Source: a virus (taxonomy: Duplodnaviria > Caudoviricetes). Taken from it: a stretch of 34,144 nt of DNA. Positions 1-33,300 of this stretch are shown piece after piece (the stretch's first letter is position 1; every line of letters starts with the position of its first letter). Location: the IMG/VR virus record IMGVR_UViG_3300049472_000055, positions 1 through 34,144 of that record; one strand, given 5' to 3'. The notes under the pieces were generated by a model that saw only the letters and a list, made by a program, of their open reading frames with translations, was not told where the DNA came from and searched no databases. Both the position numbers and the translations under genes were made by a program.

Positions 1-46
1 CCCCAATAGTCCCCACTTGTCCCCCCAAAGTATCGTAAAGTATCGT
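1..46. repeat. Short direct repeats upstream of integrase (possible att arm or regulatory sites)
   Basis: AAAGTATCGT twice in tandem (27-36, 37-46); CCCC blocks at 10-bp period (1, 11, 21); function is inferred. Confidence 0.45.
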
Positions 47-49
47 GGC

Positions 50-1114
50 ATGGGCAAACACCTGGGGTTCCGTGTCGTGCAAGAGGGTGAGCGCTGGCGC
101 GGATTCTACCGAGACGGCAAGCGCTACCGCTCCAAGACCTGGGACACGGAGGCTCTGGCCACGGCTTGGGCCAGCGGGAAGACTGCCGGCGGCAGCGTGC
201 CGGGGATCGCCCTACCCGTGGCAAAGTCTCGGGCCGATACTTCGGAGCTGGCCAAGACCTTCGTTGCGGCCCTCGACATCAAGCGCCGGTCGATCTCCCA
301 TCAGGCCAACGTCCGGCACACCCTCGACCTGATGGCAGCTGCCGTGCCGGATCTGGCTGCGCCTGATGCTCACCGGCAGATGGAGGCGTGGCTGGAGGGC
401 GTGCAGCTGGACCGGGTAGGGCGGCATCGCCGGAAGCGCAGCAAGGCCCCGAGCCCGGGCTACCGCAACCGCTTGATCGCGGAGGTCCGCGCCTTCTGCC
501 GCTGGCTGGTGCGGAAGGAGTACCTGACAGTGGATCCGAGCCGGACGCTGGAGCGGGCGACGGCACACCGGGAGATCAAGGCGCAGTTCAGCGTGGACGA
601 TGTTCGGCAGCTCTGCGCCCCGTGCGCCGACCATCCGCGGCAGCGCTGGGTGGCGCTGATGCTGCTGGCTGGGCTCCGAGCTGACGAGGCAGCAGCAATC
701 ACTTGGGCGGATCTCGTTGGCGGCCAGCTCTACGTTCGCAAGCACGCCGGCCACAGGCTCAAGCGGGGCAAGGAAAGGCTGGTCCCTCTCCAGGCACGTC
801 TAGCCGAGATTCTTGGCCCAGCGGGGCAGGGGACGGTCGCGCCGCTGACTGGAGCCCGCAGCACGGTCCAGATGGGCCGGCACTTCCGGACCTACCTGGA
901 TCACTGCGGCATCAAGCCCGGCCAGCGCACACCGCACAGCTGTCGCCACACCTACGGTGCCCTGATGATCGCCACTGGCTGCCCAGACATCCTGGTCAAG
1001 GCGTACATGGGGCATGAGGCGGTGGCGACTACAGCGGACTACGCCAAGGCCGCGCCGCTCCACGTCGAGGCGGTCAAGGGGTGGGGGATGGGGAATCTGC
1101 TGCCGGTGGCGTAG
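50..1114 (+). CDS. int: Tyrosine recombinase / phage integrase
   Basis: Catalytic set GLRADE (R), LKRGK (K), HSCRH (HxxR), MGH, ADY; ATG at 50 preferred over TTG at 17. Confidence 0.93.
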   Translation: MGKHLGFRVVQEGERWRGFYRDGKRYRSKTWDTEALATAWASGKTAGGSVPGIALPVAKSRADTSELAKTFVAALDIKRRSISHQANVRHTLDLMAAAVPDLAAPDAHRQMEAWLEGVQLDRVGRHRRKRSKAPSPGYRNRLIAEVRAFCRWLVRKEYLTVDPSRTLERATAHREIKAQFSVDDVRQLCAPCADHPRQRWVALMLLAGLRADEAAAITWADLVGGQLYVRKHAGHRLKRGKERLVPLQARLAEILGPAGQGTVAPLTGARSTVQMGRHFRTYLDHCGIKPGQRTPHSCRHTYGALMIATGCPDILVKAYMGHEAVATTADYAKAAPLHVEAVKGWGMGNLLPVA

Positions 1115-4382: not shown

Positions 4383-4410
4383 TTGACGTGTACGGACTCC
4401 GTACTACTGT
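4383..4410 (+). promoter_or_regulatory. Rightward promoter with operator O2 (GTACGG-ACT-CCGTAC, 4390-4404)
   Basis: TTGACG-16 nt-TACTGT; palindrome in the spacer; AAGGAG/GAGG RBS before ATG 4435. Confidence 0.8.
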
Positions 4411-4434
4411 TCCAGTGTACCAAGGAGAGGACCG

Positions 4435-4620
4435 ATGAGCTTCAAGCCCAGCAACGACGCCAAGAAGGTCTTGGCCGACGCCTACAATATGGGCCTGGTG
4501 ACCGATGAGTCGGTTGCCGACCTCGCCGCCATGGCCGACGCTGGCGACTATGCCGGCTTCAACGCCCTGATGAGCGCGGTTGCCGCCAAGCTGGACGGCC
4601 TGAAGGAGGCGATGACATGA
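4435..4620 (+). CDS. Hypothetical protein
   Basis: Strong RBS, GC3-rich codons, first gene of rightward operon. Confidence 0.8.
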   Translation: MSFKPSNDAKKVLADAYNMGLVTDESVADLAAMADAGDYAGFNALMSAVAAKLDGLKEAMT

Positions 4621-4808
4621 ACATCATCATCGACGCCGAGCAGATTCGGGAAGAAAGCTACTTCAACCTGTGCGCTATCGCCAGCGCCACGGGGTATGCC
4701 AATCCCGTGGCGGCTCTGGCCGTGACCAAGGAGCTGGTTGCGTGCGAGAAGGACGAGAACGGAAACATCACCAGCGCCCGGTTGCTGGACACCAAGGAGG
4801 AAGCATGA
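4617..4808 (+). CDS. Hypothetical protein
   Basis: AGGAGG RBS and ATGA overlap. Confidence 0.75.
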   Translation: MNIIIDAEQIREESYFNLCAIASATGYANPVAALAVTKELVACEKDENGNITSARLLDTKEEA

Positions 4809-4933
4809 AGACCACCAAGCTGGCGGCGCTGGCTGGCAGTAAGACCCTGACCACCCGGACCCTGGAGCAGGCCACGGCCATGGGGTTCAGCGTTATGGTC
4901 GTCGCCAAGCCCGTCAGCTGGAAGGCGGCATAA
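4805..4933 (+). CDS. Small hypothetical protein (MKTTKLAAL...)
   Basis: AGGAGG RBS, ATGA overlap, TAATG coupling downstream. Confidence 0.65.
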   Translation: MKTTKLAALAGSKTLTTRTLEQATAMGFSVMVVAKPVSWKAA

Positions 4934-5166
4934 TGCCCTACGCCGGCAAGTTCCGCGGCCCGTTCCCGGTCAAGGCGTTTGCCTTGGCCAGCGTGATCGT
5001 GACCGAGCCAGCCGAGCGCAATCGTTGCAACCCCGTCTGGCAGTGGGCCGTCCTGAGCGCGGCCGAGAAGCTGACCGGATGGGCCTACGCCATGACCTTC
5101 AGCGGCGAAGTCCGCAGCATGGCTGTCCCGCGCACAACCCCCATCCCCAAACCGGAGCCAACATGA
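4933..5166 (+). CDS. Hypothetical protein
   Basis: TAATG coupling; 77 aa. Confidence 0.7.
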   Translation: MPYAGKFRGPFPVKAFALASVIVTEPAERNRCNPVWQWAVLSAAEKLTGWAYAMTFSGEVRSMAVPRTTPIPKPEPT

Positions 5167-5531
5167 ACGATGATCCCAAACTCATCCCCCGCGCCAACTG
5201 GCAGACCAAGCAGCGCGGCACCAACCAGGACGAGTATGAAAAACCTGAGCTACCTGGCTATGGACGAAGCTGGACAGCACGCCACGCCCTACGCCATCGA
5301 TCTGTTGCGTGCTTGAGCACCCGCGAAATGACCGTCGAAACTCCTGACGGGGAAGAAATCGACGCCACCGTCCACTACGAATACGAAGCCCCGAGCCGTG
5401 CGCCGGATGGCTGGATGAAGGGGGCGCTGTGGATCTACAAGATTGAACGGGATGGGGTGGAAATCTACGTGTCGGATGAGGTGAAGGGGAAGCTTGAGGA
5501 TATTTTGTATGAGCGGGAGTGCGGCCGATGA
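5163..5531 (+). CDS. Chimeric ORF: 26-aa N-terminus of an interrupted gene + off-frame terL copy + unrelated small gene (STREMTVETPDG...)
   Basis: GGAG RBS and ATGA start at 5163; open through the 74-bp duplication; ends overlapping the MTase ATG. Confidence 0.6.
   Translation: MNDDPKLIPRANWQTKQRGTNQDEYEKPELPGYGRSWTARHALRHRSVACLSTREMTVETPDGEEIDATVHYEYEAPSRAPDGWMKGALWIYKIERDGVEIYVSDEVKGKLEDILYERECGR
5242..5315 (+). repeat. 74-bp exact direct repeat, copy 1 (copy 2 at 12299-12372 inside terL)
   Basis: AACCTGAGCTACCTGGCTATGGACGAAGC...CTGTTGCGTGCTTG identical at both loci by eye alignment. Confidence 0.97.
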
Positions 5532-6172
5532 ACGTCCTCGTCGCCTGTGAATCCAGCGGAACGGTGCGCGAGGCGTTCCGCAAGCTGGGGCATAACGCAT
5601 GGTCCTGCGATCTGCTGCCGTCCGATGACAACAGTCCATACCATACAGTCGGGGATGCGCGATACGTCATCGCCAACATGATCGCCAACGACGGGCGCGA
5701 CATGATACCGATCAGCCAAGCGGAGTGGGATCTGGTCATCGCCCACCCGCCTTGCACGCACCTTGCGTCCAGTGGGGCGCGGCACTTCGCTGCGAAGCAA
5801 GCCGACGGTAGGCAGCGAGAGGGTATTGACCTGTTCTTGGCCATTCGGGAATGCTGCAAGAAGAACGCCAAGAAGTGGGCAATCGAGAACCCTATCGGCA
5901 TCATGTCCTGCTTGTGGCGGAAGCCTAACCAAATAATCCACCCGTGGCAGTTCGGGCATGACGCCAGCAAGGCAACCTGTCTTTGGACATATTGCCTTCC
6001 GCCGCTAATGCACACCCGTGTGGTGGAAGGCCGGGTTGTGAATGGAAGGGTTAGATACGGAAACCAGTGCGATAGCGGGCAGAACAAGCTGCCGCCATCC
6101 AAGGACCGCTGGAAGATCCGCAGTAAGACGTACCAAGGGATTGCGGATGCGATGGCGGCCCAATGGTCTTGA
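5528..6172 (+). CDS. Phage DNA cytosine methyltransferase-like protein
   Basis: MNVLVACESSGTVREAF...WSCDL, DLVIAHPPCT (PC motif IV), IENP (motif VI), QFGH...KATCLW, RSKTYQGIADAMAAQW. Confidence 0.85.
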   Translation: MNVLVACESSGTVREAFRKLGHNAWSCDLLPSDDNSPYHTVGDARYVIANMIANDGRDMIPISQAEWDLVIAHPPCTHLASSGARHFAAKQADGRQREGIDLFLAIRECCKKNAKKWAIENPIGIMSCLWRKPNQIIHPWQFGHDASKATCLWTYCLPPLMHTRVVEGRVVNGRVRYGNQCDSGQNKLPPSKDRWKIRSKTYQGIADAMAAQWS

Positions 6173-6197
6173 CACACCTGTCTTTACGAGGCCGCTG

Positions 6198-6524
6198 ATG
6201 ATCGCTGACCTCCACCGCTGGGGATACCACCTCGTCCCCTGGTCCCGATCCCCCCGCAAGCCGATGATCCAGGGCTGGCTGGACAAGCCGACCGATCCGA
6301 CTGGGTTCTTGCGGGCCTATGGGGATGACATGGATTGGGCGGTCGTTCCGAAGAACGGGGTTGTTGTACTGGACATCGAGATGAAGGGCGGACTGGATGG
6401 CCAAGCCGAGTTCGATGCGCCGGCCGCGCCGGTCTACCTAGACTGTGCCAACGACGGCAAGGGCGGGGACATCACTCGCGACGGTGCGCCGCTGCTGACT
6501 TATGACGAATGGATGGGGGCCTGA
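6198..6524 (+). pseudogene. Truncated bifunctional primase/polymerase (Prim-Pol) N-terminus fused in frame to the C-half of the interrupted small gene
   Basis: WGYHLVPW...KPMIQGW...VVVLDIEMKGGLDG stops before the expected His motif; followed by unrelated VYLDCANDGKGGDITRDGAPLLTYDEWMGA. Confidence 0.65.
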
Positions 6525-6688
6525 TGCCCCACGTCCGCACTGAATACCACTGGCTGGCCGACTGCCAGATGTGGATGTTCGTGGTCATTGATGACGCCGA
6601 TGAAGTCTATGCCTGCGGCAGCGAAGCCGACCTGGAGATCGCGGCGAAGCGTGCCGGTAAAACGCTGGAACGACTGAAAAAACAATAG
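6524..6688 (+). CDS. Small hypothetical protein (MPHVRTEYHWLADCQMW..., 54 aa)
   Basis: Not in ORF track; TGATG coupling, translated by hand to TAG at 6686-6688. Confidence 0.65.
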   Translation: MPHVRTEYHWLADCQMWMFVVIDDADEVYACGSEADLEIAAKRAGKTLERLKKQ

Positions 6689-6713
6689 GTTTATTCTATT
6701 TTGTCGTTTCATG

Positions 6714-6743
6714 TTGACAAGTAAGGTGTTTACCTTATACGAG
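6714..6743 (+). promoter_or_regulatory. Promoter for replication operon with its own palindrome TAAGGT-GTTT-ACCTTA (6722-6737)
   Basis: Consensus TTGACA at 6714-6719 after an AT-rich tract; -10 is imperfect (TATACG/TACGAG). Confidence 0.6.
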
Positions 6744-6749
6744 TACACA

Positions 6750-6912
6750 GCGCAGCGGCCCCTGGCAGGGACGCAGCAACGGAACCCTTCACAATGACCC
6801 TCAACAACCCCCGAAGCATCGCCAATCAAGAAGCCGGCCCGCGAGTGAAGGCGCGTGGTCTGCAAGCCAGCTTGATTGACGATGCTTCGTTTGCTGTTGG
6901 AGGCCGCTGCTG
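6750..6912 (+). ncRNA. Structured leader RNA upstream of the replication gene
   Basis: 18/19-bp stem 6812-6830 with 6871-6889; 9-bp long-range pair GCAGCGGCC (6752-6760) with GGCCGCTGC (6902-6910); further complementary words CTTCAC/GTGAAG. Confidence 0.6.
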
Positions 6913-6913
6913 A
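6794..6913 (+). CDS. 39-aa leader peptide (uORF) coupled to the replication gene
   Basis: MTLNNPRSIANQEAGPRVKARGLQASLIDDASFAVGGRC; its TGA overlaps ATG 6913; no clear RBS. Confidence 0.4.
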   Translation: MTLNNPRSIANQEAGPRVKARGLQASLIDDASFAVGGRC

Positions 6914-7728
6914 TGGCCCGTATCAGAACCGTCAAGCCTGAGTTCTTCGAAGACGAGAACCTGGCCAAGCTCTCCCCACATGCCCGGCTCCTGTTCATCG
7001 GCCTGTTCCAACTGGCCGACAAGAACGGTGTCCTGGAGAACCGGCCGGCCTGGATTCAGTCCAAGGTCTTCCCGTATGAGTCCGGGGAAGCATCGGATGT
7101 TTCCCGGTTGCTTCCCGGGTTGGTCCTGGGGAGGTACTTGGTCGAGTATGAAGTGAACGGCCGGGCCTACCTGGCTGTCCGCAACTTCTCCAAGCACCAG
7201 CGAATCACTGGTAAAGAGGCTAAGAGCAACGGGTTGCATCCGCTGCCTCCGTCAGGTGATGCGCCTGGGAAGCACCGGGGAAACACCGGGGAAGCACCCG
7301 GGGCGACTCCGGATGCCCAGGAACAGGGAACAGGGAACAGGGAACAGGGAACAGGGAACAGGGAGAATTCGGATGCGCCTGAGGCTGCGCCTCCCATCGA
7401 CCCCGAAGCCCGGTGGCCATACGAACGCGCCCTGCCCTGGGCAATCCAGATCCAGGCACTCGGGGGGAAGATCGGCTCGGGCAACTGGATGGCCTGGAAG
7501 CGGCTGAGCGAGCTGCACCCGGCATCGACCCTGGCCCGGGCAGCCGAGAGCGTGCGCGCCGATCAGCGCTGGCCCGATCAGGTCGAAATGGCGATCAAGC
7601 AAATGCCGCCGCCCGTGCGCAAGGTCGAGCGCAGGCCAGAGCCGACGCCCGAAGAACGCGAGCGCAGGCGGCAGGCGGTTGCTGAGCTGGCGAAGCGGAC
7701 TGGCCTAGCACCTGTGGGGGCAGCATGA
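6913..7728 (+). CDS. Phage replication initiator / replisome organizer-like protein
   Basis: MARIRTVKPEFF...LSPHARLLFIGL...AD..G N-terminus typical of this class; internal iterons and low-complexity linker. Confidence 0.8.
   Translation: MARIRTVKPEFFEDENLAKLSPHARLLFIGLFQLADKNGVLENRPAWIQSKVFPYESGEASDVSRLLPGLVLGRYLVEYEVNGRAYLAVRNFSKHQRITGKEAKSNGLHPLPPSGDAPGKHRGNTGEAPGATPDAQEQGTGNREQGTGNRENSDAPEAAPPIDPEARWPYERALPWAIQIQALGGKIGSGNWMAWKRLSELHPASTLARAAESVRADQRWPDQVEMAIKQMPPPVRKVERRPEPTPEERERRRQAVAELAKRTGLAPVGAA
7266..7310 (+). repeat. 11-bp iteron-like repeats (putative replication origin)
   Basis: TGGGAAGCACC, GGGGAAACACC, GGGGAAGCACC, then degenerate GGGGCGACTCC; related copy GGGGAAGCATC at 7084-7094. 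Confidence 0.7.
7320..7361 (+). repeat. Heptamer tandem repeat (GGAACAG) x6
   Basis: Six perfect copies, 42 bp, encoding EQGTGNR twice. Confidence 0.95.
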
Positions 7729-8438
7729 AGCCCCGCATCGTCCCCTCCATGGCCGAAGCGAAGGCATTGCCCGTGCAATGGACCGAGGGCGTCATCTGCA
7801 ACGCAGTGGCTGCGTATGTCGAATGGTGGCGCAACACCGTGGTGCCGAACGTCTATCTCGGACCAACTGGCCGCGAGATCGATGTGGCTGTGATGACCAA
7901 GGCTGGACTGCTGTGGGCGTTTGAGATCAAGACCAGCCTGGCCGACTGGAAGCGCGACCTAACGAAGCGCAGGTACCCGGCATGCGCTGAGCCGGCGCGG
8001 TTTTACTACGTCGTTCCCGAGACGCTGGTGCAGTGGGCTGAGCGCCCGACGTGCCATGCGTGGACAAAGTTGAGCCCAATTATTCCCGAGTGGGTTCCGA
8101 AGCACGCAGGCATCGTCTTCCTGCGCAATGACCGGCAGATGACCACTTACGACGATGGCGTTCATGTGTTCGATACACCGAAGCGCGGATACGTTCACCC
8201 ATGCAAGAGCATCCACCGTCGCCCGCTGGATCCGAAGTATCGCGGAGGTAGCATGAACATCTTCGAAGAAGTCGAAAAGCTCCCGCGGCACCACCGCCTG
8301 GCTCTGGCCGGCTACATCCTGCGCAGCGTCAAGCCCAAGGGCGATGAGAAGAAACGACTGCTGGGCAGGTACCAGACGGAGGAAGTTCACGATTACAAAC
8401 CACATGATCTCGGCGAAAGCCGCCCGGAGGGGGTCTAA
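7725..8438 (+). CDS. MmcB-like PD-(D/E)XK nuclease-fold protein, apparently fused to a second small gene
   Basis: EIDVAV...FEIKTSLADWKRD...RFYYVVP...AGI; internal GGAGGT + in-frame ATG at 8253. Confidence 0.7.
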   Translation: MKPRIVPSMAEAKALPVQWTEGVICNAVAAYVEWWRNTVVPNVYLGPTGREIDVAVMTKAGLLWAFEIKTSLADWKRDLTKRRYPACAEPARFYYVVPETLVQWAERPTCHAWTKLSPIIPEWVPKHAGIVFLRNDRQMTTYDDGVHVFDTPKRGYVHPCKSIHRRPLDPKYRGGSMNIFEEVEKLPRHHRLALAGYILRSVKPKGDEKKRLLGRYQTEEVHDYKPHDLGESRPEGV

Positions 8439-8740
8439 TGGGATGGTCACCAACCAAAACGCGCCGATATGCAAAGCCCACGACGAAGCGGGAATACGAG
8501 AGAATGCATGCGCGCGCTTTATCGGTTAAAGATCGTGAGCGCACATTGCGCGTGAGCGAAACATTTCGGCTCGTCATGCTGAAGCTGTTCCCGAAAGCTT
8601 CGCAGGCTGAAATCGCACGAGCTGTAGATCTCCCAGTGGCTGCCATCACCAAGATCATGTGTTGTGAGACATATGGCTATGACCGTCTGGAACCTGTGCT
8701 GGCACGAATTGCAGCATACATCGAAAGGATGAAAGCATGA
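8438..8740 (+). CDS. HTH-containing protein (candidate transcription regulator)
   Basis: ASQAEIARAVDLPVAAITKI HTH-like segment; GGAGG RBS, TAATG coupling. Confidence 0.6.
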   Translation: MGWSPTKTRRYAKPTTKREYERMHARALSVKDRERTLRVSETFRLVMLKLFPKASQAEIARAVDLPVAAITKIMCCETYGYDRLEPVLARIAAYIERMKA

Positions 8741-8848
8741 TCATCATTGGACAAGGATGCGGCAGAACCACCGGACACGGTGAAACCTGCTGTGCGAAGG
8801 CCGGCTTTGCGATGCATGCTCGACTATTCAACGCATGAGGGGAATCCG

Positions 8849-9022
8849 ATGAGACATCATCTCACCATGGCGCTGATGGCTGCACGGTTGTCGATATGCA
8901 GCGCTGACAGCCGTGGAGACATCCGCTGGCGTAAAGGATCGGACCGCCAGCTGAGCAAGCGGCAGAAGACCCGCGCCGCCAAGAAACGGAAGAAGCTGCA
9001 CAGGAAGCAGGGCCGCCAATGA
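8849..9022 (+). CDS. Small basic hypothetical protein
   Basis: GAGG RBS; Lys/Arg-rich C-terminus; ATGA overlap downstream. Confidence 0.55.
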   Translation: MRHHLTMALMAARLSICSADSRGDIRWRKGSDRQLSKRQKTRAAKKRKKLHRKQGRQ

Positions 9023-9198
9023 GACTGCCAAACACCACGATCAAGCGCGACGAGAAGTACGTCACCATCCGCATCCCGCTCCGCGTGGCAGCTGCCATGA
9101 CCCAGGAGTATTGGGACATGCTGGCGACCAACACCAGGCGATTGCTGCCAGACGTAACGCCAATCCAGAACCTGACAGCGAAAGTCAAAGCGCCATGA
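9019..9198 (+). CDS. Small hypothetical protein (MRLPNTTIKRDEKYVTIRIP..., 59 aa)
   Basis: Not in ORF track; ATGA overlaps at both ends. Confidence 0.65.
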   Translation: MRLPNTTIKRDEKYVTIRIPLRVAAAMTQEYWDMLATNTRRLLPDVTPIQNLTAKVKAP

Positions 9199-9476
9199 CA
9201 ATCATGGCCCATCACTTCGACATTGGCTGCAATGAGTGCGGCGACTGGCGGGCGGTCACAGCGAACACCGCTGGCGCTGCCCGTCGCTCACTCAAGGCCA
9301 AAGGCTGGGTGAAGATCAGCGAATGCGGTCGCATCAATGATCTTTGCCCAATGTGCGCAGGCCAGTGGCGAGCCACAAAACTGGCAATCAAAGCCGAACG
9401 CCAGCGAGAGCGATACCAGAAGGTATCAAACCCACAGCAACACCAATTCAAAACCAAGAAGGAATCCCATGTCTGA
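9195..9476 (+). CDS. Zn-finger hypothetical protein
   Basis: CNEC...AARRSLKAKGW...DLCPMC. Confidence 0.7.
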   Translation: MTIMAHHFDIGCNECGDWRAVTANTAGAARRSLKAKGWVKISECGRINDLCPMCAGQWRATKLAIKAERQRERYQKVSNPQQHQFKTKKESHV

Positions 9477-10116
9477 CGCCATTAACGCGGCTCGCGCCGC
9501 CCTCACCCTCATCTGGCCCGGAGGCGCTGAGTGCGTGGAATGCGGCCCGGGCGTGCGAGTGTTTGCTCTGGACGCCGCAGAGAAGCGCGAGGCCGAGCTG
9601 GTCGAAGCGCTGGAAGCCATGTGCGGTCAATACCTAAGCGTTCGCGACGGCAAGCTGCACCATGACTTCATGAGCGCTGGCGAGCTGGCATTTGACGCCT
9701 TGGGCTGGGAAGACACCGGGCACCCACTGGACGCCAGCCAGCTCTGCGAAGTGCCAGGCTGCGGCCAGGCGTGGTCATGCGGTGCCAACGGGAAGGACGA
9801 CAAGTACCACACCTTCTGCCACAACCACTTCAACGAGTGGATCGCCGCCGGTCACCACGAAACGCAGGAGCAGGCCGACGCCCGCTGGACCAAGAACCTG
9901 CGCGACAGCGGCATGAGCGACGAGGAGGTCGCCGCGCACCAGGAGAAGATCAGGAACATGCACAGCCAGTGGAAGGCGCTTCAGGACAAGATGCCGGAAG
10001 CGCAGCCGTTGGAGCTACTGGCCAAGGTCGTGAAGCTGGACGAGACGGCGAACCGCGTCGAGGCCCTGGCACACGAAACGGCACCGAGCAGCGCAGCGCA
10101 GGAGTTCGCATCATGA
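9469..10116 (+). CDS. Mosaic hypothetical protein with Cys/His clusters
   Basis: AAGGA RBS before MSDAINAA; CVEC, CEVPGC...FCHNH. Confidence 0.75.
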   Translation: MSDAINAARAALTLIWPGGAECVECGPGVRVFALDAAEKREAELVEALEAMCGQYLSVRDGKLHHDFMSAGELAFDALGWEDTGHPLDASQLCEVPGCGQAWSCGANGKDDKYHTFCHNHFNEWIAAGHHETQEQADARWTKNLRDSGMSDEEVAAHQEKIRNMHSQWKALQDKMPEAQPLELLAKVVKLDETANRVEALAHETAPSSAAQEFAS

Positions 10117-10364
10117 AAAAGAAACAGCTAACCGTCGATGAACACAAAGTCATTGGCGCTGAGCTTTATGAGATTAGGCGCAGGATTATGAAAATTGAGG
10201 ATCGGCTTTGGAAGGCCATTCCAATTAGCCACCGGATTAACACGAAGACTGCGGGCGTGCGGGGTAAGATAGACGCGCTGCGTAGCGATCTCGACAGCTT
10301 GCTGCGCGACCAGTATCCAAACGACTTCAGCACCAAAACATATTACCCAGGGGACAAGGCATGA
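10113..10364 (+). CDS. Hypothetical protein, lower GC than its neighbours
   Basis: AGGAG RBS, ATGA overlap, MKKKQLTVDEHKVIG. Confidence 0.7.
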   Translation: MKKKQLTVDEHKVIGAELYEIRRRIMKIEDRLWKAIPISHRINTKTAGVRGKIDALRSDLDSLLRDQYPNDFSTKTYYPGDKA

Positions 10365-10521
10365 GCCTCGCCGCTGTCCCCGATCGAAGGCCCGCGAGAA
10401 CGATCCAGAGGCCATTGCCGAGCTGATCAAGCGCGGGCTCATCGGAGATCCCGATGCCATCAAGAGGACCAGGGAACGACGCGAGAAGGCCCAGGACCGG
10501 GCACGGAAGTTTGAGCGATGA
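10361..10521 (+). pseudogene. Frameshifted or 5'-truncated small gene
   Basis: ATG 10361 frame stops after 21 aa, while a start-less -1 frame (KARENDPEAIAELIKRGLIGDPD...KFER) ends coupled to ATG 10518. Confidence 0.4.
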
Positions 10522-10652
10522 AGGCTAAAACGAAGGCCAAGGCCAAGCGCTGCCCGTGCTGCGGACGCTGGGTAAACCCCGGCATCCTGCGCATGTGCCA
10601 GGCGTGGTGGGCATGCTACCACTGCGGCGGGAAGGCTCCGACGTTCGCATGA
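10518..10652 (+). CDS. Small Zn-ribbon protein (44 aa)
   Basis: CPCC...CYHC; ATGA overlaps at both ends; not in ORF track. Confidence 0.65.
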   Translation: MKAKTKAKAKRCPCCGRWVNPGILRMCQAWWACYHCGGKAPTFA

Positions 10653-10885
10653 ACGACGACCCATACCACGATCTGCGCCTGAAAGCGCGAATGCTCAGCG
10701 ATCTGTTCAAGTACGGATGCACAGATGGCGGCTGCAAGATGCGACCGCGCACAGGCGGCATGCACACCAACGGCGGATGCCGGTGCATGGAAAGCCTGGC
10801 AGAGCTATCATTGGAGGTTGCAGCCGAAGCCGATCGCTTCACGCGGGGGAAGCCGCGGCCGGCTATGATCGGGCATATCCTGTGA
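10649..10885 (+). CDS. Cys-rich phage hypothetical protein
   Basis: GCTDGGC...GGMHTNGGCRC motif; ATGA start. Confidence 0.7.
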   Translation: MNDDPYHDLRLKARMLSDLFKYGCTDGGCKMRPRTGGMHTNGGCRCMESLAELSLEVAAEADRFTRGKPRPAMIGHIL

Positions 10886-11067
10886 GCACTGGAGATCTGC
10901 TGGCCGAACACCTGCTTGCCAAGGGCTATCCACAGGACGAAGTGGACATCGTGGTAGAACGCGCCGCCCTGCTTCAATTCCTCGCCGGCAAGACCCGGTG
11001 GAAGGCTGGAGTAGATGCGCAGATCGATCACCTGGGGAAGCTGGAGTGCAAGCAGCATGACATATGA
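10882..11067 (+). CDS. Hypothetical protein
   Basis: GTGA overlap start; helical 61-aa product. Confidence 0.55.
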   Translation: MSTGDLLAEHLLAKGYPQDEVDIVVERAALLQFLAGKTRWKAGVDAQIDHLGKLECKQHDI

Positions 11068-11290
11068 CCCATTGTTCCCCAGGCGGCAACCGTGCCCCTG
11101 TGGCAGCGGTAAGAAATTCAAGGAGTGCTGTGAAGTCCATGTCAGCGGCGATCGGGCAGTCGCCATCAACGCCGAACGGCTCATGCAGCGAGAGCGATTC
11201 AACCCCGGGCTGATCCAGAGCATGGCCGAAGGATTCGAACAGGAGATTGCCAGGCGCACCACCCAAACCAATCCGCACCCGACTCGGTAA
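11057..11290 (+). CDS. SEC-C motif (Zn-binding) protein
   Basis: RQPCPCGSGKKFKECC near the N-terminus; GGAG RBS. Confidence 0.8.
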   Translation: MTYDPLFPRRQPCPCGSGKKFKECCEVHVSGDRAVAINAERLMQRERFNPGLIQSMAEGFEQEIARRTTQTNPHPTR

Positions 11291-11353
11291 TGACGCCGAC
11301 CAGACGGTTACCGGCTTTCGCACTCGGGGCGCTGATTGCCACCCCGGAGGCTG

Positions 11354-11374
11354 TAACTCGGGGTGGATAGCAAG
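11354..11374 (+). promoter_or_regulatory. Late motif copy 1 (TAACTCGGGGTGGATAGCAAG), with an inverted core at 11339-11346
   Basis: Matches motif at 13425, 16967, 25069, 33109; 47 nt before ATG 11401. Confidence 0.65.
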
Positions 11375-11400
11375 GACTTATGAGCATAACGAAAGGTACC

Positions 11401-11955
11401 ATGACGATAGGACGGCCGACGCTTTATGACCCGGACGAGCACCCCAGCGCAGTGATGCTGTTGGCTCGAAATGGTAAGACGGTTGCCGATATGGCGGAAG
11501 CCCTTGATATTGGGTTGGCTACATTCAAGCGCTGGATGATAGATCACCCTGAGTTTCGGGCCGCCCTGGAGCTGGGGCGCGAGGCTGCAGACGAACGTGT
11601 TGAACGATCGCTGTTCGAACGAGCCACAGGCTACGAACATCCTGCGGTAAAGATCCTGACTGTGAGCGGTGGCCAGGGCATGGGCAGTCACATCGAAACC
11701 GTCCCCTACACCGAGCGCTACCCGCCCGATGTCGAGGCCGCGAAGTTCTGGCTGAAGAACCGCAAGCCTGCGAAGTGGCGCGAAAAGAGCGAGGTAGAGC
11801 AGAACGTGAAGCACTACGTTGTAGAGCTTCCGCCTGCTGTTGCCGACAACGATCCACTGACCTGGGCCAAGGAAGTCCGTGCTGAGCGGATCCGCAGCGG
11901 TGAATTGAAAGAGGATCCGCCACCGCCGCCTGGTCTACCGCAGTCCAATGGATGA
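11401..11955 (+). CDS. terS: Terminase small subunit
   Basis: GRPTLYDP, HTH, WMIDHPEF, VERSLFERATGY, PPDVEAAKFWLKNRKPAKWREK; directly upstream of terL; alternative start 11380. Confidence 0.9.
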   Translation: MTIGRPTLYDPDEHPSAVMLLARNGKTVADMAEALDIGLATFKRWMIDHPEFRAALELGREAADERVERSLFERATGYEHPAVKILTVSGGQGMGSHIETVPYTERYPPDVEAAKFWLKNRKPAKWREKSEVEQNVKHYVVELPPAVADNDPLTWAKEVRAERIRSGELKEDPPPPPGLPQSNG

Positions 11956-13426
11956 CACTGAGCGAATTCTGAGGCCGAACCCTGGGCCGCAGACATGGGC
12001 GCTTCGCTGCCCTGTAGATGATCTATTGTACGGTGGCGCTCGTGGTGGTGGCAAGGGAATCTTCCTCATCCTCGACTGGCTGCGGCATGCGGCGAAGTGT
12101 GGTGGAAGGGCTCGCGGCCTGATCCTGCGCAAGTATTTGACCGACCTGAAGGACTTCATCGCAGAAACGCAGAAGTACATGCCACGCTTGGGCTGGACGT
12201 GGCGGCAGCAGGACAAGCAATGGATCGGGCCTGATGGCTCCATCCTGAACCTGAGCTACCTGGAGCGCGAGCAAGACGCCGAAGGTCAACAGGGCTGGAA
12301 CCTGAGCTACCTGGCTATGGACGAAGCTGGACAGCACGCCACGCCCTACGCCATCGATCTGTTGCGTGCTTGCCTGCGTCTGACCGGTGTTCCCGAGCAC
12401 CTGTTGCGGCTGACAGCCAACCCTGGTGGACCTGGCCACAAGTGGCTGAAGGAACGCTATGTCGATCCAGCACCGCCATCTGTGCCCCATAGCGGTGTGA
12501 TCACCCTCCCGACTGGGGAGCGCGTGACCTACCAGCGTGTGTTCATACCAGCCCGACTGCGCGACAACCCGCTTTGTGACACCGCCGAGTACCGCAAGAA
12601 CCTGTTCTTGTCGGCCGGCGGCAGAGACTGGCTGGTCAAGGCGTGGCTGGAAGGTGACTGGAACGTCCAGCCTGATGGCGGCATCTTCGACGTGGACAAG
12701 ATCCAGTTCGGTGAGCCGCCGATCCTGGTGCCACTGGGCGGTCTGCCTCGCTACGGGGCCCCGCTCATTGAGCGCATCTGGCAGGGCTGGGATACGGCAT
12801 TCACGGTCAAGACCACGAACGACGAATGCGCTGGCCTGACCGTTGGTCGCGACGATCGGGCGCGGTTCTGGCTGCTGAACCTGGAGCATGGGCACTGGGA
12901 CACGGGCACGTCACCGCTCAAGATCATGGAGCAGCAACGCCTGTGGAACGCCATGCATGTGATGCTGGAAGGGGGTCCGGCCGGGCTCGCCATTGAGCCC
13001 ACCATCCAGGACTTGCGCCACCGCTCCATGCTGGGCGACAAGCCGCAGCACTTCGCTTTCGATCTCGTCAGCCACATGAGCGACAAGGTGGCCAAGAACA
13101 CCGCCTTTGCCTACGCCGTGAACCAGGGCCAAGTGTGGGTTGGCGGCACCAGGGAGAACCCGCCGCATTGGTGGCCCTACCTGCGCGACCAGCTGCTGAC
13201 CTTCAGCGGCAAGGACGGCATCCCAGATGACTGCGTTGATGCCGGTGGCGTGGCCTTCCGCGAGCTGCACCGCATCCTGGCAGCTGCACCGACCGAGCAG
13301 GAGGTCGGCCCACGCAAGGACGCCCTGCGGCCGGACATCCAGGCTCGCGTGGCCGAGGTCCGCGCCCGTCTTCCCCAGACCACCGGCGGCAGCGATGCAC
13401 CGCGCCGGATGTTCGGTCCCAGGTAA
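11948..13426 (+). CDS. terL: Terminase large subunit
   Basis: Walker A YGGARGGGKG, Walker B YLAMDEA, LTANPGGPGHKW, nuclease GWDTA and DDCVDA. Confidence 0.95.
   Translation: MDDTERILRPNPGPQTWALRCPVDDLLYGGARGGGKGIFLILDWLRHAAKCGGRARGLILRKYLTDLKDFIAETQKYMPRLGWTWRQQDKQWIGPDGSILNLSYLEREQDAEGQQGWNLSYLAMDEAGQHATPYAIDLLRACLRLTGVPEHLLRLTANPGGPGHKWLKERYVDPAPPSVPHSGVITLPTGERVTYQRVFIPARLRDNPLCDTAEYRKNLFLSAGGRDWLVKAWLEGDWNVQPDGGIFDVDKIQFGEPPILVPLGGLPRYGAPLIERIWQGWDTAFTVKTTNDECAGLTVGRDDRARFWLLNLEHGHWDTGTSPLKIMEQQRLWNAMHVMLEGGPAGLAIEPTIQDLRHRSMLGDKPQHFAFDLVSHMSDKVAKNTAFAYAVNQGQVWVGGTRENPPHWWPYLRDQLLTFSGKDGIPDDCVDAGGVAFRELHRILAAAPTEQEVGPRKDALRPDIQARVAEVRARLPQTTGGSDAPRRMFGPR
12299..12372 (+). repeat. 74-bp exact direct repeat, copy 2 (terL Walker B region)
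   Basis: Identical to 5242-5315. Confidence 0.97.
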
Positions 13427-13445
13427 GTCCGGGGTGTAAACCAAC
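13425..13445 (+). promoter_or_regulatory. Late motif copy 2 (AAGTCCGGGGTGTAAACCAAC)
   Basis: Intergenic, 45 nt before ATG 13470. Confidence 0.75.
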
Positions 13446-13469
13446 GCCTGGCCCTGTAGACCGCAGCCT

Positions 13470-16966: not shown

Positions 16967-16987
16967 AAGTCCGGGGTGGATACCAAT
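16967..16987 (+). promoter_or_regulatory. Late motif copy 3 (AAGTCCGGGGTGGATACCAAT)
   Basis: Intergenic, 45 nt before ATG 17012. Confidence 0.78.
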
Positions 16988-17011
16988 ACTGGTTGTGTTA
17001 TCGCGGGGGGT

Positions 17012-22521: not shown

Positions 22522-23706
22522 ATGGCTGGATTCTCAGGACTCGACAACCGGCTGAACAGCATGTCGGCGCTTGGCAAGCGGTGGCAGCAAATGATGTCTA
22601 AGCAGACCAACCCGACCGCAGCAGCGGTGGCCAACGAATGGCACACCCTGTTCCGCGGCGGCGGCAATCCGCCGGCCGATGCGATCTTCGATGCCGGCAC
22701 GAACCTGTTGTTCCAGGCGCTGACCGACCAGACGCCCAACGCCGGCAGCCTGTACCACGGCGGCGACGTGGGCGCGGCCGGCGATGACTTCAAGATCCTG
22801 GAGACGGCGATGGCGAACACCGCCGCCGGTACGGTGGTCCCGGCCTGGGTCCAACTGATCGACGTGCTGGGCTTCATCCGCGTGACCACCGTCACCACGA
22901 CCACCGCGCAGACGGTCATCTGGCCATACAACGACGGCACGGCGACCGGCGGCGGCGAAGCCGTGACCTTCTCGTCGTCGAGCGGACTGCTGGGAACGTA
23001 CACCAACGATATTCAGAACCTCAGCAAGGTCCGTTTCCGCAACAGCGGCGGCGCCCTGCCCACCGGCCTGGTCGCCGGAACGGACTACTACACCATCCGC
23101 GTGACGGCCACCACCTGCCGCTTCGCCACCAGCCGCGCCAACGCCATCGCCAGTACGGCTATCGCCTTCACCGACGCCGGCAGCGGAACCAACGTCCTCG
23201 ACGTGCGCCTGCCGCGCTACTCGGACGGTGTTGGCGTTGATTGCATGTTCTTCAACCCGTCGACCACCGCGCTGGGCGCCGGCACCCCGGCCCTGACCAT
23301 CGGTTATCAGAACGGCGCTGGCGTGACCGCCAGAGCCACGCCGACCACCCCCAGCGCACCTGTGGGCAAGACGGCAGCGACGGCCAGCCACATCCTGTGG
23401 ACCGGCGCGACCGGCGCCGGCAAGTTCGGCCCAGCGATCCCGCTGCAAGGCGCCGACAGCGGCATACGCAGCGTGCAGAACGTGCGCAACAGCGCGACCT
23501 ACACGTCCGGTTCTTACACCGTGGCGCTGTACAAGCGCCTAGGCGAACCGATCCCGCTGCAAGTCCTTGGTCAGGCCGTGCCGTGGCGCTTCGACGGTGG
23601 CGTGCGCGTCTTCGACGGCGCCGCCATCTACGGCATCGTCAAGTCTGGTGTGGCGACCCCGGCCAACTCGCTGATCGAAGTGAATCTCGACTTCGGCTGG
23701 GCCTGA
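22522..23706 (+). CDS. Putative virion protein, paralog B with inserted domain
   Basis: GGAG RBS; RLPRYSDGVGV...YQNGAGVT...PLQGADSGIRSVQ. Confidence 0.8.
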   Translation: MAGFSGLDNRLNSMSALGKRWQQMMSKQTNPTAAAVANEWHTLFRGGGNPPADAIFDAGTNLLFQALTDQTPNAGSLYHGGDVGAAGDDFKILETAMANTAAGTVVPAWVQLIDVLGFIRVTTVTTTTAQTVIWPYNDGTATGGGEAVTFSSSSGLLGTYTNDIQNLSKVRFRNSGGALPTGLVAGTDYYTIRVTATTCRFATSRANAIASTAIAFTDAGSGTNVLDVRLPRYSDGVGVDCMFFNPSTTALGAGTPALTIGYQNGAGVTARATPTTPSAPVGKTAATASHILWTGATGAGKFGPAIPLQGADSGIRSVQNVRNSATYTSGSYTVALYKRLGEPIPLQVLGQAVPWRFDGGVRVFDGAAIYGIVKSGVATPANSLIEVNLDFGWA

Positions 23707-25068: not shown

Positions 25069-25089
25069 AAGTCCGGGGTGGATACCAAC
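25069..25089 (+). promoter_or_regulatory. Late motif copy 4 (AAGTCCGGGGTGGATACCAAC)
   Basis: 20 bp identical to copy 3; 51 nt before ATG 25120, which has a GAGGA RBS. Confidence 0.78.
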
Positions 25090-25119
25090 ACGTTTGCTGA
25101 TCTCTTTGGCGAGGAACCT

Positions 25120-27360
25120 ATGGTAGACTTTGCCCCACAGATTTCTGGACCAGGCTCCATCGTGGCGGATCCGTCGCGGCCCATGGCCGAGGAACCAAGC
25201 GCTGTCGCTGTGGCCGTGGCCGTCCCGCCGAATGAAGTGCGCGAAGGCAAGCCGCATGAGCGAGCGCTGATTCGCAAGTGGATTGAGCAGGCCCGTGTCC
25301 CGAGCTGGTTGCGCAGTGGCTGGGAGCAGTGGAAGAAAGATCGGGACTACCTGCATACCGACTGCTTCGACGCGGCTGACCCGAAGCATTTCACCGTCAA
25401 CCTGGCGGCGCGGGCGATCCAGAAGAAAGAGCAGAAGATCACGCCAACGGACGCCGATGTCAGCGTCACCCACAATCGCGGCGTGGGCAGCGTTCGCGAC
25501 GTTCGCATTGACGCGATCCGCGAAACCAAGGCCAAGTTCGAAGCCATGGGCATCCCGCCCCAGGCTCCTGTCCTGATGTTCGCTGCCGACAAAGCCGAGC
25601 AGGAATACAAGGACGAGCTGGAGGCCAAGGAGCGGTTCTGCCAGACATCAGAAGCGCTGATCAAGAAGCTCATGGACGAAGCCCGCGTTACGCCCGTGGC
25701 GCAGATGTGGGCCAAGCAGGCGATGACCGTTGGCCCGGCTTGGGTCAAGGTCGGCTGGCAGCGCAATTTCGGCAAGGACTCCCTGGGTCGTAACCGGAAT
25801 GACGACTCCCAGGACCAGCTCAAGCTGCTTGGCCTGCGCTCATCCGAATATGCCAACGGGCAGTTCGGCCAGGATGATCCGAGGTATGCCGAGCTGATCA
25901 TGCTCAGCGACTACGCCCGCCAGGTTGGCAAGGAGGTTGTCAGCGGCGAGGTTGAGCCCGGGTCTTTGCCGTTCAGCCAGTGGAAGGCCATTGCCGACAC
26001 CCGCGACAGCGAGCCGGTCCCGCCGCAGTGGCTTCCCGAGCCCGATGTCTGGCAGGGCGCGATCATCGACACCGTGAAGCCGGAGGCCATGCGCTGGGAT
26101 TGGCGCACGCCGTTTGAGCGGTGGAGCGAGACGCCATGGGTTCAAGAGCAGAACCTGATGGACGTGGATCTGTGCGCAGCGCAATACGGCATGACGCCGG
26201 CCGAGCGCGACCGGCTGGGGACGCGCAATGCCCAGATCCCTGGCCAGAACACCACCAACAGCGCAACGCCTGCGTCGACCAGCGAGGCCGCGAACCCTGA
26301 CCGCGGCTCGTTTGAGGATCAGGTTCAGCAGGGGCAAGTCGTGGTATGGGAGCGGTGGGACCGCACCCTGCGCCGCCGCTGCATTTTCGTGGAAGGGCTT
26401 GAGCGCTTCCTGGTTGACGAAGTGCCGAAGGTCGTCGGCCCCAACTTCTACCCGTATGTGCCGCTGGCATTCGACGTGTTCGACGGAGCGCATCTGCCGG
26501 TATCGACGGTCACCTTCCTGCGCAAGATCCAGAATGCGATCAACCAGCGCCTGACCGATGCGGAGGAAAGCCTGTGGGCTTCCATGAAGCGGTATCTGGT
26601 CAAGAAGAACGCCTTCAAGCCCGGCGAGATCGACAAGCTGCGCGGGGCCCTGCCCCACGATGTCATTGAAGTCGAGAGCCCCGAGGAAATCGCCAAGAGC
26701 CTGCAAGAGCTGGCCAGCGACGACTGGAACCCGGCGAAATACACGCTGGATACGCTGTTTCGGCTGTTCGAATTGGTCAGCGGCATGTCGATCTCTGAGC
26801 TGGGCGTGACCGGCCAGGCAGATTTTGCCACCGAAGCCGCCATTGCCGATGCCGCCAGCAAGGCCACCAATGATCGGCACGCGAACATCATGGCTGCCGG
26901 CCTGACCGAGGTGGCCAAGATCATCCACCACTACGCATGCACGTCCTATTCTGAGAAGACCGTGAAGGGGCTGCTGAGCAGCCGCGCCGCCTATTGGCCC
27001 CAGGCACCGACCCGGGCCGATCTGCTGCGCAGCATGAACGTCAGGGTGACCGCTGCTGGCAGCACCGAGGCTGCGCACGCCAAGGCCGCGACCCAGGTCA
27101 AGGAAGCGATGAGCGCTGTCGGCGGCGTGCTGAGCCTGCGCATGCAAACGCTCCAGCAGGGCGGCACCTTTGACGAGGGCCCGTTGCTGACTGCCATCTT
27201 CCGCACGATCAACCTCGACCGGCCGGTGCGCGAGGTCATCAGCTTCTCGCAGATGCCACAGCAACCGGCCATGCCCGGTCTACCCGGTCAACCCGGTCAA
27301 CCTCCGGCCCCTGGCCAGCCTCCGGGCCAGCCGCTGCCAGGCCCGCCGCCCGGCCCCTAA
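25120..27360 (+). CDS. Portal protein (P22-like podovirus type, by size and position)
   Basis: 746 aa before scaffold and capsid; GPAWVKVGW, VVWERWD, FYPYVP, LRKIQNAIN, ELVSGMS...G...ATEA; Pro/Gln-rich tail. Confidence 0.78.
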   Translation: MVDFAPQISGPGSIVADPSRPMAEEPSAVAVAVAVPPNEVREGKPHERALIRKWIEQARVPSWLRSGWEQWKKDRDYLHTDCFDAADPKHFTVNLAARAIQKKEQKITPTDADVSVTHNRGVGSVRDVRIDAIRETKAKFEAMGIPPQAPVLMFAADKAEQEYKDELEAKERFCQTSEALIKKLMDEARVTPVAQMWAKQAMTVGPAWVKVGWQRNFGKDSLGRNRNDDSQDQLKLLGLRSSEYANGQFGQDDPRYAELIMLSDYARQVGKEVVSGEVEPGSLPFSQWKAIADTRDSEPVPPQWLPEPDVWQGAIIDTVKPEAMRWDWRTPFERWSETPWVQEQNLMDVDLCAAQYGMTPAERDRLGTRNAQIPGQNTTNSATPASTSEAANPDRGSFEDQVQQGQVVVWERWDRTLRRRCIFVEGLERFLVDEVPKVVGPNFYPYVPLAFDVFDGAHLPVSTVTFLRKIQNAINQRLTDAEESLWASMKRYLVKKNAFKPGEIDKLRGALPHDVIEVESPEEIAKSLQELASDDWNPAKYTLDTLFRLFELVSGMSISELGVTGQADFATEAAIADAASKATNDRHANIMAAGLTEVAKIIHHYACTSYSEKTVKGLLSSRAAYWPQAPTRADLLRSMNVRVTAAGSTEAAHAKAATQVKEAMSAVGGVLSLRMQTLQQGGTFDEGPLLTAIFRTINLDRPVREVISFSQMPQQPAMPGLPGQPGQPPAPGQPPGQPLPGPPPGP

Positions 27361-31564: not shown

Positions 31565-33300
31565 TGCCTACCAAGCAGCTCGGGCCATTCCGCGGCATCG
31601 ACGCCAGGCCGGGCGCTGCCGACAAAGCCGGCGGTCTGCTGGAGGCGCTGAACGTCATCGTTGCGGCCGATGGTGGACTCGTCCGTCGTCCGGCGCTGAC
31701 CGCTCGGGCAACCCTGCCGGCTGACTCCAAGGGGCTCTATGCCGTTGGCGATCAGCTGCGCACATTGGCCCCGTACCAGATCACAGCATCGACCACTACA
31801 AGCGGGACCAACAACGTCGGCGGCACCCAGCTAAACGTGGTCACCACCACCGGATTCCCGGCCAGCGGGTTCGTGACCACCATCGACGGCGATGTTATTC
31901 GGGAATACCCCTACGCATCGAAAACCGGGACGGCGTTCATCTTCCCGACCGTGCCGACTGCTGTCGTTTTGGTGTCCACGCTCGTGGCCGGTAAGGCAGT
32001 TCGATACGACGACTGCGCACAGGACAACGACCTGACGCCGACGATCTATGTCGACTACATCACCGATCCAACGCCGGACACGCTGGACACCGTGCTTGGC
32101 ACCATCATTGGATCGGACGGCCGGTCTATTTCGCTGACCAGATACGCGAACCGATCGACGGCCATTCACCGATCGCCGCTGACTGGTGAGCCACCGCAGA
32201 CGGACACGCTGGTTCCTGCCCTGGGGTTCACCCCGGACTTCTCCATCGTCAGAGCTGCCGGCCGTGCATTTGCCCTGGACGCAACGTTGCGGTATCTGCG
32301 GTATTCAGCGGTCGACAGCGCCAATCCCGATCGGCTGCTGGATTTCGGCCAGACGCTCTACCCGGTCCCCGACACTGACCCCATCGTCTACACCACATCT
32401 GTGGACCAGACGAGCGGTGCCGGCTTTCTGGAGGTCAGCCAATTCGCCAGCGGCGCAGGCAGCCCCCAGGGCCTGGCGCTGTTTGGTGGTCGCATGGTCG
32501 TTCTTTACCGGAGCGCCTTGCTGATCTACCGCATCGACGTGGACCAGTCGCGGTTCTTCCTGGAACAGCAGATCACTGGTCCCGGCACCAGCGCACCGCG
32601 CAGCGTTGCCGAGCTTGGAGCCGACACCATCTTCCTGTCGGAAGCCGGCGTTCGTGTGATCTCGACAGTGATGCAGACGCTTGATGCGCGAGAAGACGCC
32701 ATCGGCGGTCGCATCGACCACCTGGCCAAGCAGTTCGCGGCGAATGACACCATCACGCCGGTAGGCTGTTACTCCCGGCGGCTGGGCTGCTACCTACTGG
32801 CATTCGGACAAGACGTGCTGTGCCTGGGCGTCCTGCCTGGCAGCGCCATCCTGGGGTGGACCCGCTGGCGTCTGCCGGTGCCAGTTGATGCCTGGGCCGA
32901 GTCGAGTGGCCTTCAGTGGATGCGCAGTGGGACGACACTCTATGCCTTTGAAGACGGCGAGGATCAAGACGAAACGAGCCTTGGCGTCTATGTCAATGTT
33001 CCGGTTCTGGTCGAAACCCTGCCGATGCGCGGCACAACCCAGAACATCGCCACGGCAGTTTCTGCGGCTGCCACCGAGCCCATCATGGTTCAGGTGGTAG
33101 CGGATGGCAGGCCCGGGGTGGATAACAACGGCGCACCCATTGGACTACCCATTACCTTGCCTCCGCGTGCGCCTGAGCCGGCGCGTGCGATTCTCAGCAA
33201 GCTGGGAAGGACATTCAGCGTGCGCGTCTATGACGAAGCTGCCGTCGCTGGATGGCGGTTGGACAATCTCTGGCTGGATGTCGATCCGGTGAGGGCCTAA
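31564..33300 (+). CDS. Tail nozzle / tubular protein B or P22 gp10-like stabilization protein
   Basis: FRGID...LNV...GGLVRRP N-terminus; GTSAPRSV...IFLS..GV; GWTRW beta-propeller features. Confidence 0.7.
   Translation: MPTKQLGPFRGIDARPGAADKAGGLLEALNVIVAADGGLVRRPALTARATLPADSKGLYAVGDQLRTLAPYQITASTTTSGTNNVGGTQLNVVTTTGFPASGFVTTIDGDVIREYPYASKTGTAFIFPTVPTAVVLVSTLVAGKAVRYDDCAQDNDLTPTIYVDYITDPTPDTLDTVLGTIIGSDGRSISLTRYANRSTAIHRSPLTGEPPQTDTLVPALGFTPDFSIVRAAGRAFALDATLRYLRYSAVDSANPDRLLDFGQTLYPVPDTDPIVYTTSVDQTSGAGFLEVSQFASGAGSPQGLALFGGRMVVLYRSALLIYRIDVDQSRFFLEQQITGPGTSAPRSVAELGADTIFLSEAGVRVISTVMQTLDAREDAIGGRIDHLAKQFAANDTITPVGCYSRRLGCYLLAFGQDVLCLGVLPGSAILGWTRWRLPVPVDAWAESSGLQWMRSGTTLYAFEDGEDQDETSLGVYVNVPVLVETLPMRGTTQNIATAVSAAATEPIMVQVVADGRPGVDNNGAPIGLPITLPPRAPEPARAILSKLGRTFSVRVYDEAAVAGWRLDNLWLDVDPVRA
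33109..33129 (+). promoter_or_regulatory. Late motif copy 5 (AGGCCCGGGGTGGATAACAAC), intragenic
   Basis: CCGGGGTGGATA-CAAC match; about 190 nt before the tail fibre start. Confidence 0.5.

Follow-up and report, generated by a model that had tools for sequence, protein, structure and literature searches.

An exact 74-nt copy of terL at the joint of a gene-carrying insertion in an uncultured phage: a probable filler from homology-free joining

Recombination without homology is the usual explanation of phage mosaicism, while fresh junctions whose target is fully known are seldom encountered. For the sharp mosaic borders in phages, illegitimate recombination is the current proposal (PMC2327257), and capture of filler or fragments at double-strand breaks is described for bacteria (PMC6379672) and yeast (PMC1976456). 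In the bacterial study, dealing with the Ku/LigD system of Sinorhizobium, a linear fragment was inserted into an induced break in all of the transformants analyzed (285/285), two of them with tandem copies, and untemplated bases were added at plasmid junctions (PMC6379672). A literature search, mostly of non-subscription journals, returned no direct phage precedent for templated insertion, filler DNA or template switching with duplicated fragments.

The window analyzed here is the entire record, a single contig of 34,144 bp, and the phage is likely temperate. The only public run with this DNA, run X1 from freshwater sediment, may itself have yielded the contig, so that its data do not stand independently of the assembly. 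The window carries an exact 74-nt copy of a part of its own terL at the left joint of an insertion, and this copy is probably a filler from a recent homology-free joining (end-joining or template switch) that captured a methyltransferase gene. The features concerned are listed in Table 1.

Table 1. Coordinates of the insertion, its target gene, the source of the repeat and other genes of the window
Feature	Position	Strand	Support and remarks
Integrase	17-1114		PHROGs
Split gene (conserved in phages, 51-58 aa), 5' half: codons 1-26	5163..5240	+	N half of P0002/P0007; loci L091, L119, L098
Extra A at the left joint (a second one if the target codon read GAG)	5241..5241	+	Absent from terL and from the target gene frame
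74-nt exact terL copy (probable filler)	5242..5315	+	3' junction inside contig 3 of run X1, depth 10.7
Cargo gene of ~72 codons	5313..5531	+	Fused in frame behind split gene and filler; one 122-aa ORF 5163-5531
Intact cargo DNA methyltransferase	5528..6172	+	phrog_757, E=5e-67; GGAG upstream
Primase-polymerase gene, 5' fragment	6198..6431	+	PF09250 relatives; fused in frame to the split-gene 3' half
Split gene, 3' half: codons 27-56	6432..6524	+	Stop overlaps next ATG; junction inside contig 4 of run X1
Phage's own replication initiator	6913..7728	+	phrog_16167, E=4e-35; between the two copies
Terminase small subunit (terS)	11380..11955	+	phrog_309, E=1e-42; between the two copies
Terminase large subunit (terL), intact, source of the filler	11948..13426	+	phrog_979, E=6e-39
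Portal	25078-27360		PHROGs

Apart from the insertion, a 23-nt motif was observed in four copies in the structural region (13425-13447, 16967-16989, 25069-25091 and 33109-33131; 74-100% to reference), with copies directly following terL and covering two predicted GTG start codons, that at 16976 and that of the portal gene; it is possibly a late promoter or a regulator box. Inverted arms of 29 nt with 83% complementarity (6802-6830 / 6871-6899) are situated just upstream of the replication initiator and represent a possible leader hairpin or antisense control. The MmcB-like protein encoded at 7725-8438 has an additional C-terminal block beginning at an internal Met and may be the product of two fused genes. 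Neither tRNA nor tmRNA genes were found in the window.

A single gene lies here in two halves, one in the ORF that starts at 5163 and the other in the last 30 codons of that ending at 6524. A short-protein search with the second ORF produced 21 proteins of 51-58 aa, among which P0002 and P0007, both of 56 aa, matched both halves. The first half ends at 5240 with codon 26 and the second begins at 6432 with codon 27 (26+30=56), so that not a single codon was lost or duplicated, and the insertion is thereby defined as 5241-6431, 1,191 bp in length and free of target duplication. The family to which the gene belongs (5163-5240 plus 6432-6524; L081-L121 and L220-L276) is widespread and well conserved, with proteins of 50-60 aa; the pieces in the window gave no Pfam or PHROG match, and both halves are still undecayed. 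For counting uninterrupted sites, 41 viral and 57 metagenome loci were fetched using the second half alone, and in all of them (98/98, with 47 distinct upstream strings) the first half was found directly upstream of the second. Because the halves are kept joined in every one of these homologous loci, the site is not a usual insertion hotspot, and that idea was discarded; the preliminary description had asked whether relatives carry other self-derived fragments at this site, and these uninterrupted loci gave no example. Two of the 66 proteins of the family (P0055 and P0080) have unrelated N-termini, joined a few residues further in. A search with the N-terminal half gave two weak matches, neither of them belonging to the family.

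A repeat search over the whole window showed that 5242-5315 and 12299-12372 are identical at 74 of 74 nt, on the same strand and with a spacing of 7,057 bp, in full agreement with the exact 74-bp terL copy in the same orientation 7 kb away that had been reported before. The match stops sharply and is extended by neither flank. With a 7-nt tandem at 7320 set aside, the second-longest exact dispersed direct repeat in the 34,144-bp contig is only 21 nt long, and in 53 other phage loci (each of at least 8 kb; 748,872 bp in total) no dispersed exact repeat was longer than 35 nt; therefore, the 74-nt identity is not due to chance. The absence of differences over 74 nt bounds the divergence of the copies at less than approximately 4%. 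The source of the copy lies within terL over the LAMDE motif, which aligned with the hhhhEE/DE acidic motif of homologues and which we take to be Walker B. The best matches of this terL had 33-45% identity among the best 80 of 582 viral loci and up to ~44% among the best 15 of 555 matches in GenBank phages. A 17-nt exact repeat within terL was also observed, encoding the same five residues on two neighboring ATPase strands.

The upstream gene reads through 5242-5315 without a stop in a frame other than that of terL, which bears out, for the upstream ORF, the earlier claim that the copy is read in another frame; the terL frame of the copy also opens an ORF of 26 codons (5236-5316), whose ATG precedes the copy. 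The preliminary description further had a TTG at the end of the copy replacing the ATG of the next gene: the TTG is indeed present at 5313-5315, while the replacement is unproven, since no sequence homologue of this gene of ~72 codons was found besides itself. Both outer junctions are in frame, with 5163-5531 forming one ORF of 122 aa at the left and the primase-polymerase fragment running into the 3' half of the split gene at the right. A random filler of 50-100 nt would be in frame and free of stops 21% of the time and, together with the right junction, the chance value is ~7%. The in-frame junctions hint at selection against polar effects; alternatively, the fusion proteins could have a role.

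The insert consists, in order, of the extra A, the 74-mer, the gene of ~72 codons, the methyltransferase gene and the first 68-78 codons of a primase-polymerase gene. The ~72-codon gene has no visible ribosome-binding site of its own and its stop (ORF 5163-5531) overlaps the methyltransferase ATG; its look-alikes in the Atlas were viral proteins without a name (score 0.92, low recognition). The locus closest to the methyltransferase gene, L124, has 84% nucleotide identity over 5528-5958. When L124:1044-1682 is compared with 5528-6172, this 84% is confined to the first 431 nt and the sequences are divergent beyond, which places a mosaic border inside the methyltransferase gene. The closest relatives of the primase-polymerase have 220-252 aa and belong to PF09250; the fragment in the insert is cut at approximately one third of this length, and the likeness fades past ~6401. 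In the locus L204, a primase-polymerase relative is preceded by a helicase-like gene (by motif reading) and by a gene for 72 aa; the alignment of the latter with the ~72-codon cargo gene was not significant (E=0.51), and the two are likened by position and size only. Considering the gene order in L204, the primase-polymerase gene cut short and the presence of the phage's own initiator, the remainder of the insert is likely a slice of the replication module of another phage. Between 6417-6434 and 23400-23417 (minus strand), 17 of 18 nt agree, with 5 of 150 GC-rich control windows being equally good, and a second, self-derived filler in the last 18-30 nt of the insert is thus a possible but weak suggestion. 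An overlap of 27 nt between a pair of run X1 contigs at 6223-6255 has the geometry of a 33-nt node common to another sequence, and a related primase-polymerase, perhaps from kin of the donor, may be present in the same sample.

The insert sits at a definable break and has no long homology to the flanks, and its filler is traceable to terL at 74/74 nt. The loss-free split without target duplication, the one or two extra bases and the tandem arrangement of two or three mutually unrelated pieces are consistent with the capture of fragments at a double-strand break. Such a break would have split the small gene between codons 26 and 27. By one route, end-joining would have ligated loose fragments, leaving one or two untemplated A and possibly a TG microhomology in the middle; by the other, the broken end would have primed briefly on terL and then switched to the donor. 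The gap now holds a piece of terL from the phage itself, followed by 1.1 kb that likely stem from the replication module of another phage. The variant presumably survived because the target gene is dispensable and the reading frames and translational coupling were kept, with a possible gain from the methyltransferase, and the 74-mer would have no sequence-specific job, being identical because it is young. At the joints, one or two extra A are left, that at 5241 likely being untemplated, and a TG overlap exists only if the donor had ATG. Template switching would leave a similar product, inseparable from end-joining without the donor sequence. Searches of viral, metagenome and genome contigs found neither a close relative with an empty site nor a donor genome, so that the junction microhomologies cannot be read off. 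The earlier proposal of a templated filler, produced by end-joining or template switching at an insertion junction, is thereby supported, the insertion now being defined by the 56-codon gene that it splits. The 74-nt copy is likely an ordinary patch from the joining of broken DNA and a neutral scar rather than a working device.

This reading presumes a correct assembly, for which the evidence comes from contigs of run X1: about 80% of the contigs of the run were read, and the contig findings are those of 8 of 55 placed contigs. The run contained 0.98 of the 907 words sampled from 4400-13400. Contigs start at 5286 (depth 10.7) and at 12343 (depth 11.2), that is, with the last 30 nt of each copy, as expected where an assembly forks behind a repeat that is present twice, at k=31, presumably the value used in the assembly of this run; because the contigs fork exactly at the 3' end of the repeat at these depths, a simple mis-assembly is unlikely. 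In the bin 5170-5503, the depth unexplained by the listed contig corresponds to a 74-nt piece at ~22.6, the sum of both copies, while no such piece is needed to account for the depth in the bin of the terL copy; this evidence is indirect, as related sequences also add some depth to other bins. A wider artefact of assembly or library, in which terL, the early region and a co-occurring phage were joined into a chimera, draws on the reliance on a single run, possibly the source itself and with a library type not on record, and on the position of the left junction, as well as the region 5' of the terL copy, outside the 8 of 55 contigs listed, the left junction being seen indirectly. However, both 3' exits of the repeat have genome-like depth, the listed contigs pass 5316 and 6431/6432 with no joint, indel, substitution or alternative path (that of 6226-7336 spanning the right end of the insertion without differences), and the left joint is located at the exact codon set independently by the right joint: a chimera is not expected to hit the very codon at which, 1,191 bp further on, the gene continues. 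Such an artefact is quite improbable.

If the assembly is accepted, the copy might still be something other than a neutral patch. The preliminary description considered that the repeat excises 5242-12298 as a replicon-bearing circle. An identity of 74 nt is sufficient for homologous recombination at a low rate, the segment includes the initiator, so that the circle would resemble lambda dv, and contigs alone cannot distinguish a linear repeat from a circle; but the depths inside the segment (6.5-12.7 vs 5.3-11.2 outside) show no excess and no joint was present in the 8 of 55 contigs listed, while the remaining genome would be deprived of the initiator, terS and the 5' part of terL, the rest of terL being out of frame with a stop after 64 codons. 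Excision between the copies, a rare circle included, might occur but would be fatal to the phage, and a recombination substrate in actual use is very hard to credit. Equally far-fetched is a functional decoy of a CRISPR or small-RNA target, as had been suggested, or else a regulatory RNA or a short TerL peptide with the Walker B strand from the 26-codon ORF. Exact identity to an essential gene and the terL-frame ATG ahead of the copy speak for such a function, but the identity bounds divergence only to the same few percent and is explained by youth, the copy has the same sense as terL in a run of plus-strand genes and is not antisense, and it can be reasoned that a second identical target gives the genome one more cut site and shields none. 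The weak tests for spacer-like matches were negative: a 32-mer of the copy had no exact match in viral contigs, its central 22-mer had none in metagenome contigs and one, by chance, in genomes (L219, inside a coding gene with no array), and the full 74-mer had no match in phages and one chance match in plasmids at 46% cover. The fold of the copy is not unusual (z=-0.22), no promoter-like site was found in it, the window had no Rfam match at gathering score, and no RNA holder of the DNA was listed; a decoy-protospacer precedent was not found in the literature, mostly of non-subscription journals. In a variant of the patch reading, the scrap would not be random but would come from DNA ends that terminase produced where packaging starts within terL. 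The copy begins right at the latter of the two 17-nt terL repeats (12247-12263 / 12298-12314), and in the corresponding region of the 54 distinct homologue segments listed, internal repeats of this kind reach at most 13 nt; against this, both repeats encode family-compatible residues, with preferred codons making the DNA identical by a ~3% chance when the five residues agree, and known pac sites are mostly in or near terS. This origin of the ends is improbable, and the broader proposal, that phages gain genes in one step with the breaks patched by loose scraps, their own included, and here from a terminase-cut end inside terL, is improbable too. If true, the 74-mer would be a footprint linking packaging ends with gene capture without homology and would point to an unusual site for the start of packaging.

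Several established types of insertion were rejected as well. An insertion sequence or transposon is excluded by the lack of a transposase among the ORFs of the insert and of exact repeats at its ends or flanks. A group I or II intron does not agree with the boundary bases, the patterns for such introns being U|...G and GUGYG...AY, and had no Rfam match. An att site of an integrative element in terL was dismissed, since excision would place the 3' part of terL, out of frame, after half of an unrelated gene.

The event is ordinary in kind and is a clear case of homology-independent gene acquisition by a phage. Taken alone, it is one scar in one uncultured phage, with the target codon, the self-derived linker and the captured methyltransferase visible together at the junction. 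If self-copied fillers prove to be common, junction statistics could separate end-joining from template switching in phage gene gain.

Compared to the known systems, the locus is similar to bacterial Ku-LigD end-joining and to fragment capture in yeast in having foreign DNA in a break that lacks homology at its flanks, a few bases that are probably untemplated and more than one piece in tandem. In contrast to these, it represents a natural phage event in which one piece came from a distant gene of the phage itself. With the phage mosaics and morons it shares the slice of a module of another phage, the sharp borders and the preserved frames, while it differs from them by a target gene split without loss and by a self-derived linker at one joint. 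Off-target integration by Cas1-Cas2 also pastes a short piece of phage DNA at a new site, but here there is no repeat-length duplication, the 74 nt are about twice the usual spacer and the cargo is 1.1 kb; an ectopic spacer was rejected because of the missing flanking duplication. The templated insertions of FoSTeS/MMBIR and polymerase theta are described mainly in eukaryotes, and verifying the junction microhomologies of the present locus would take the donor sequence; what they have in common with this phage is a short exact copy, present at the joint of a rearrangement, of a remote stretch of the same molecule.
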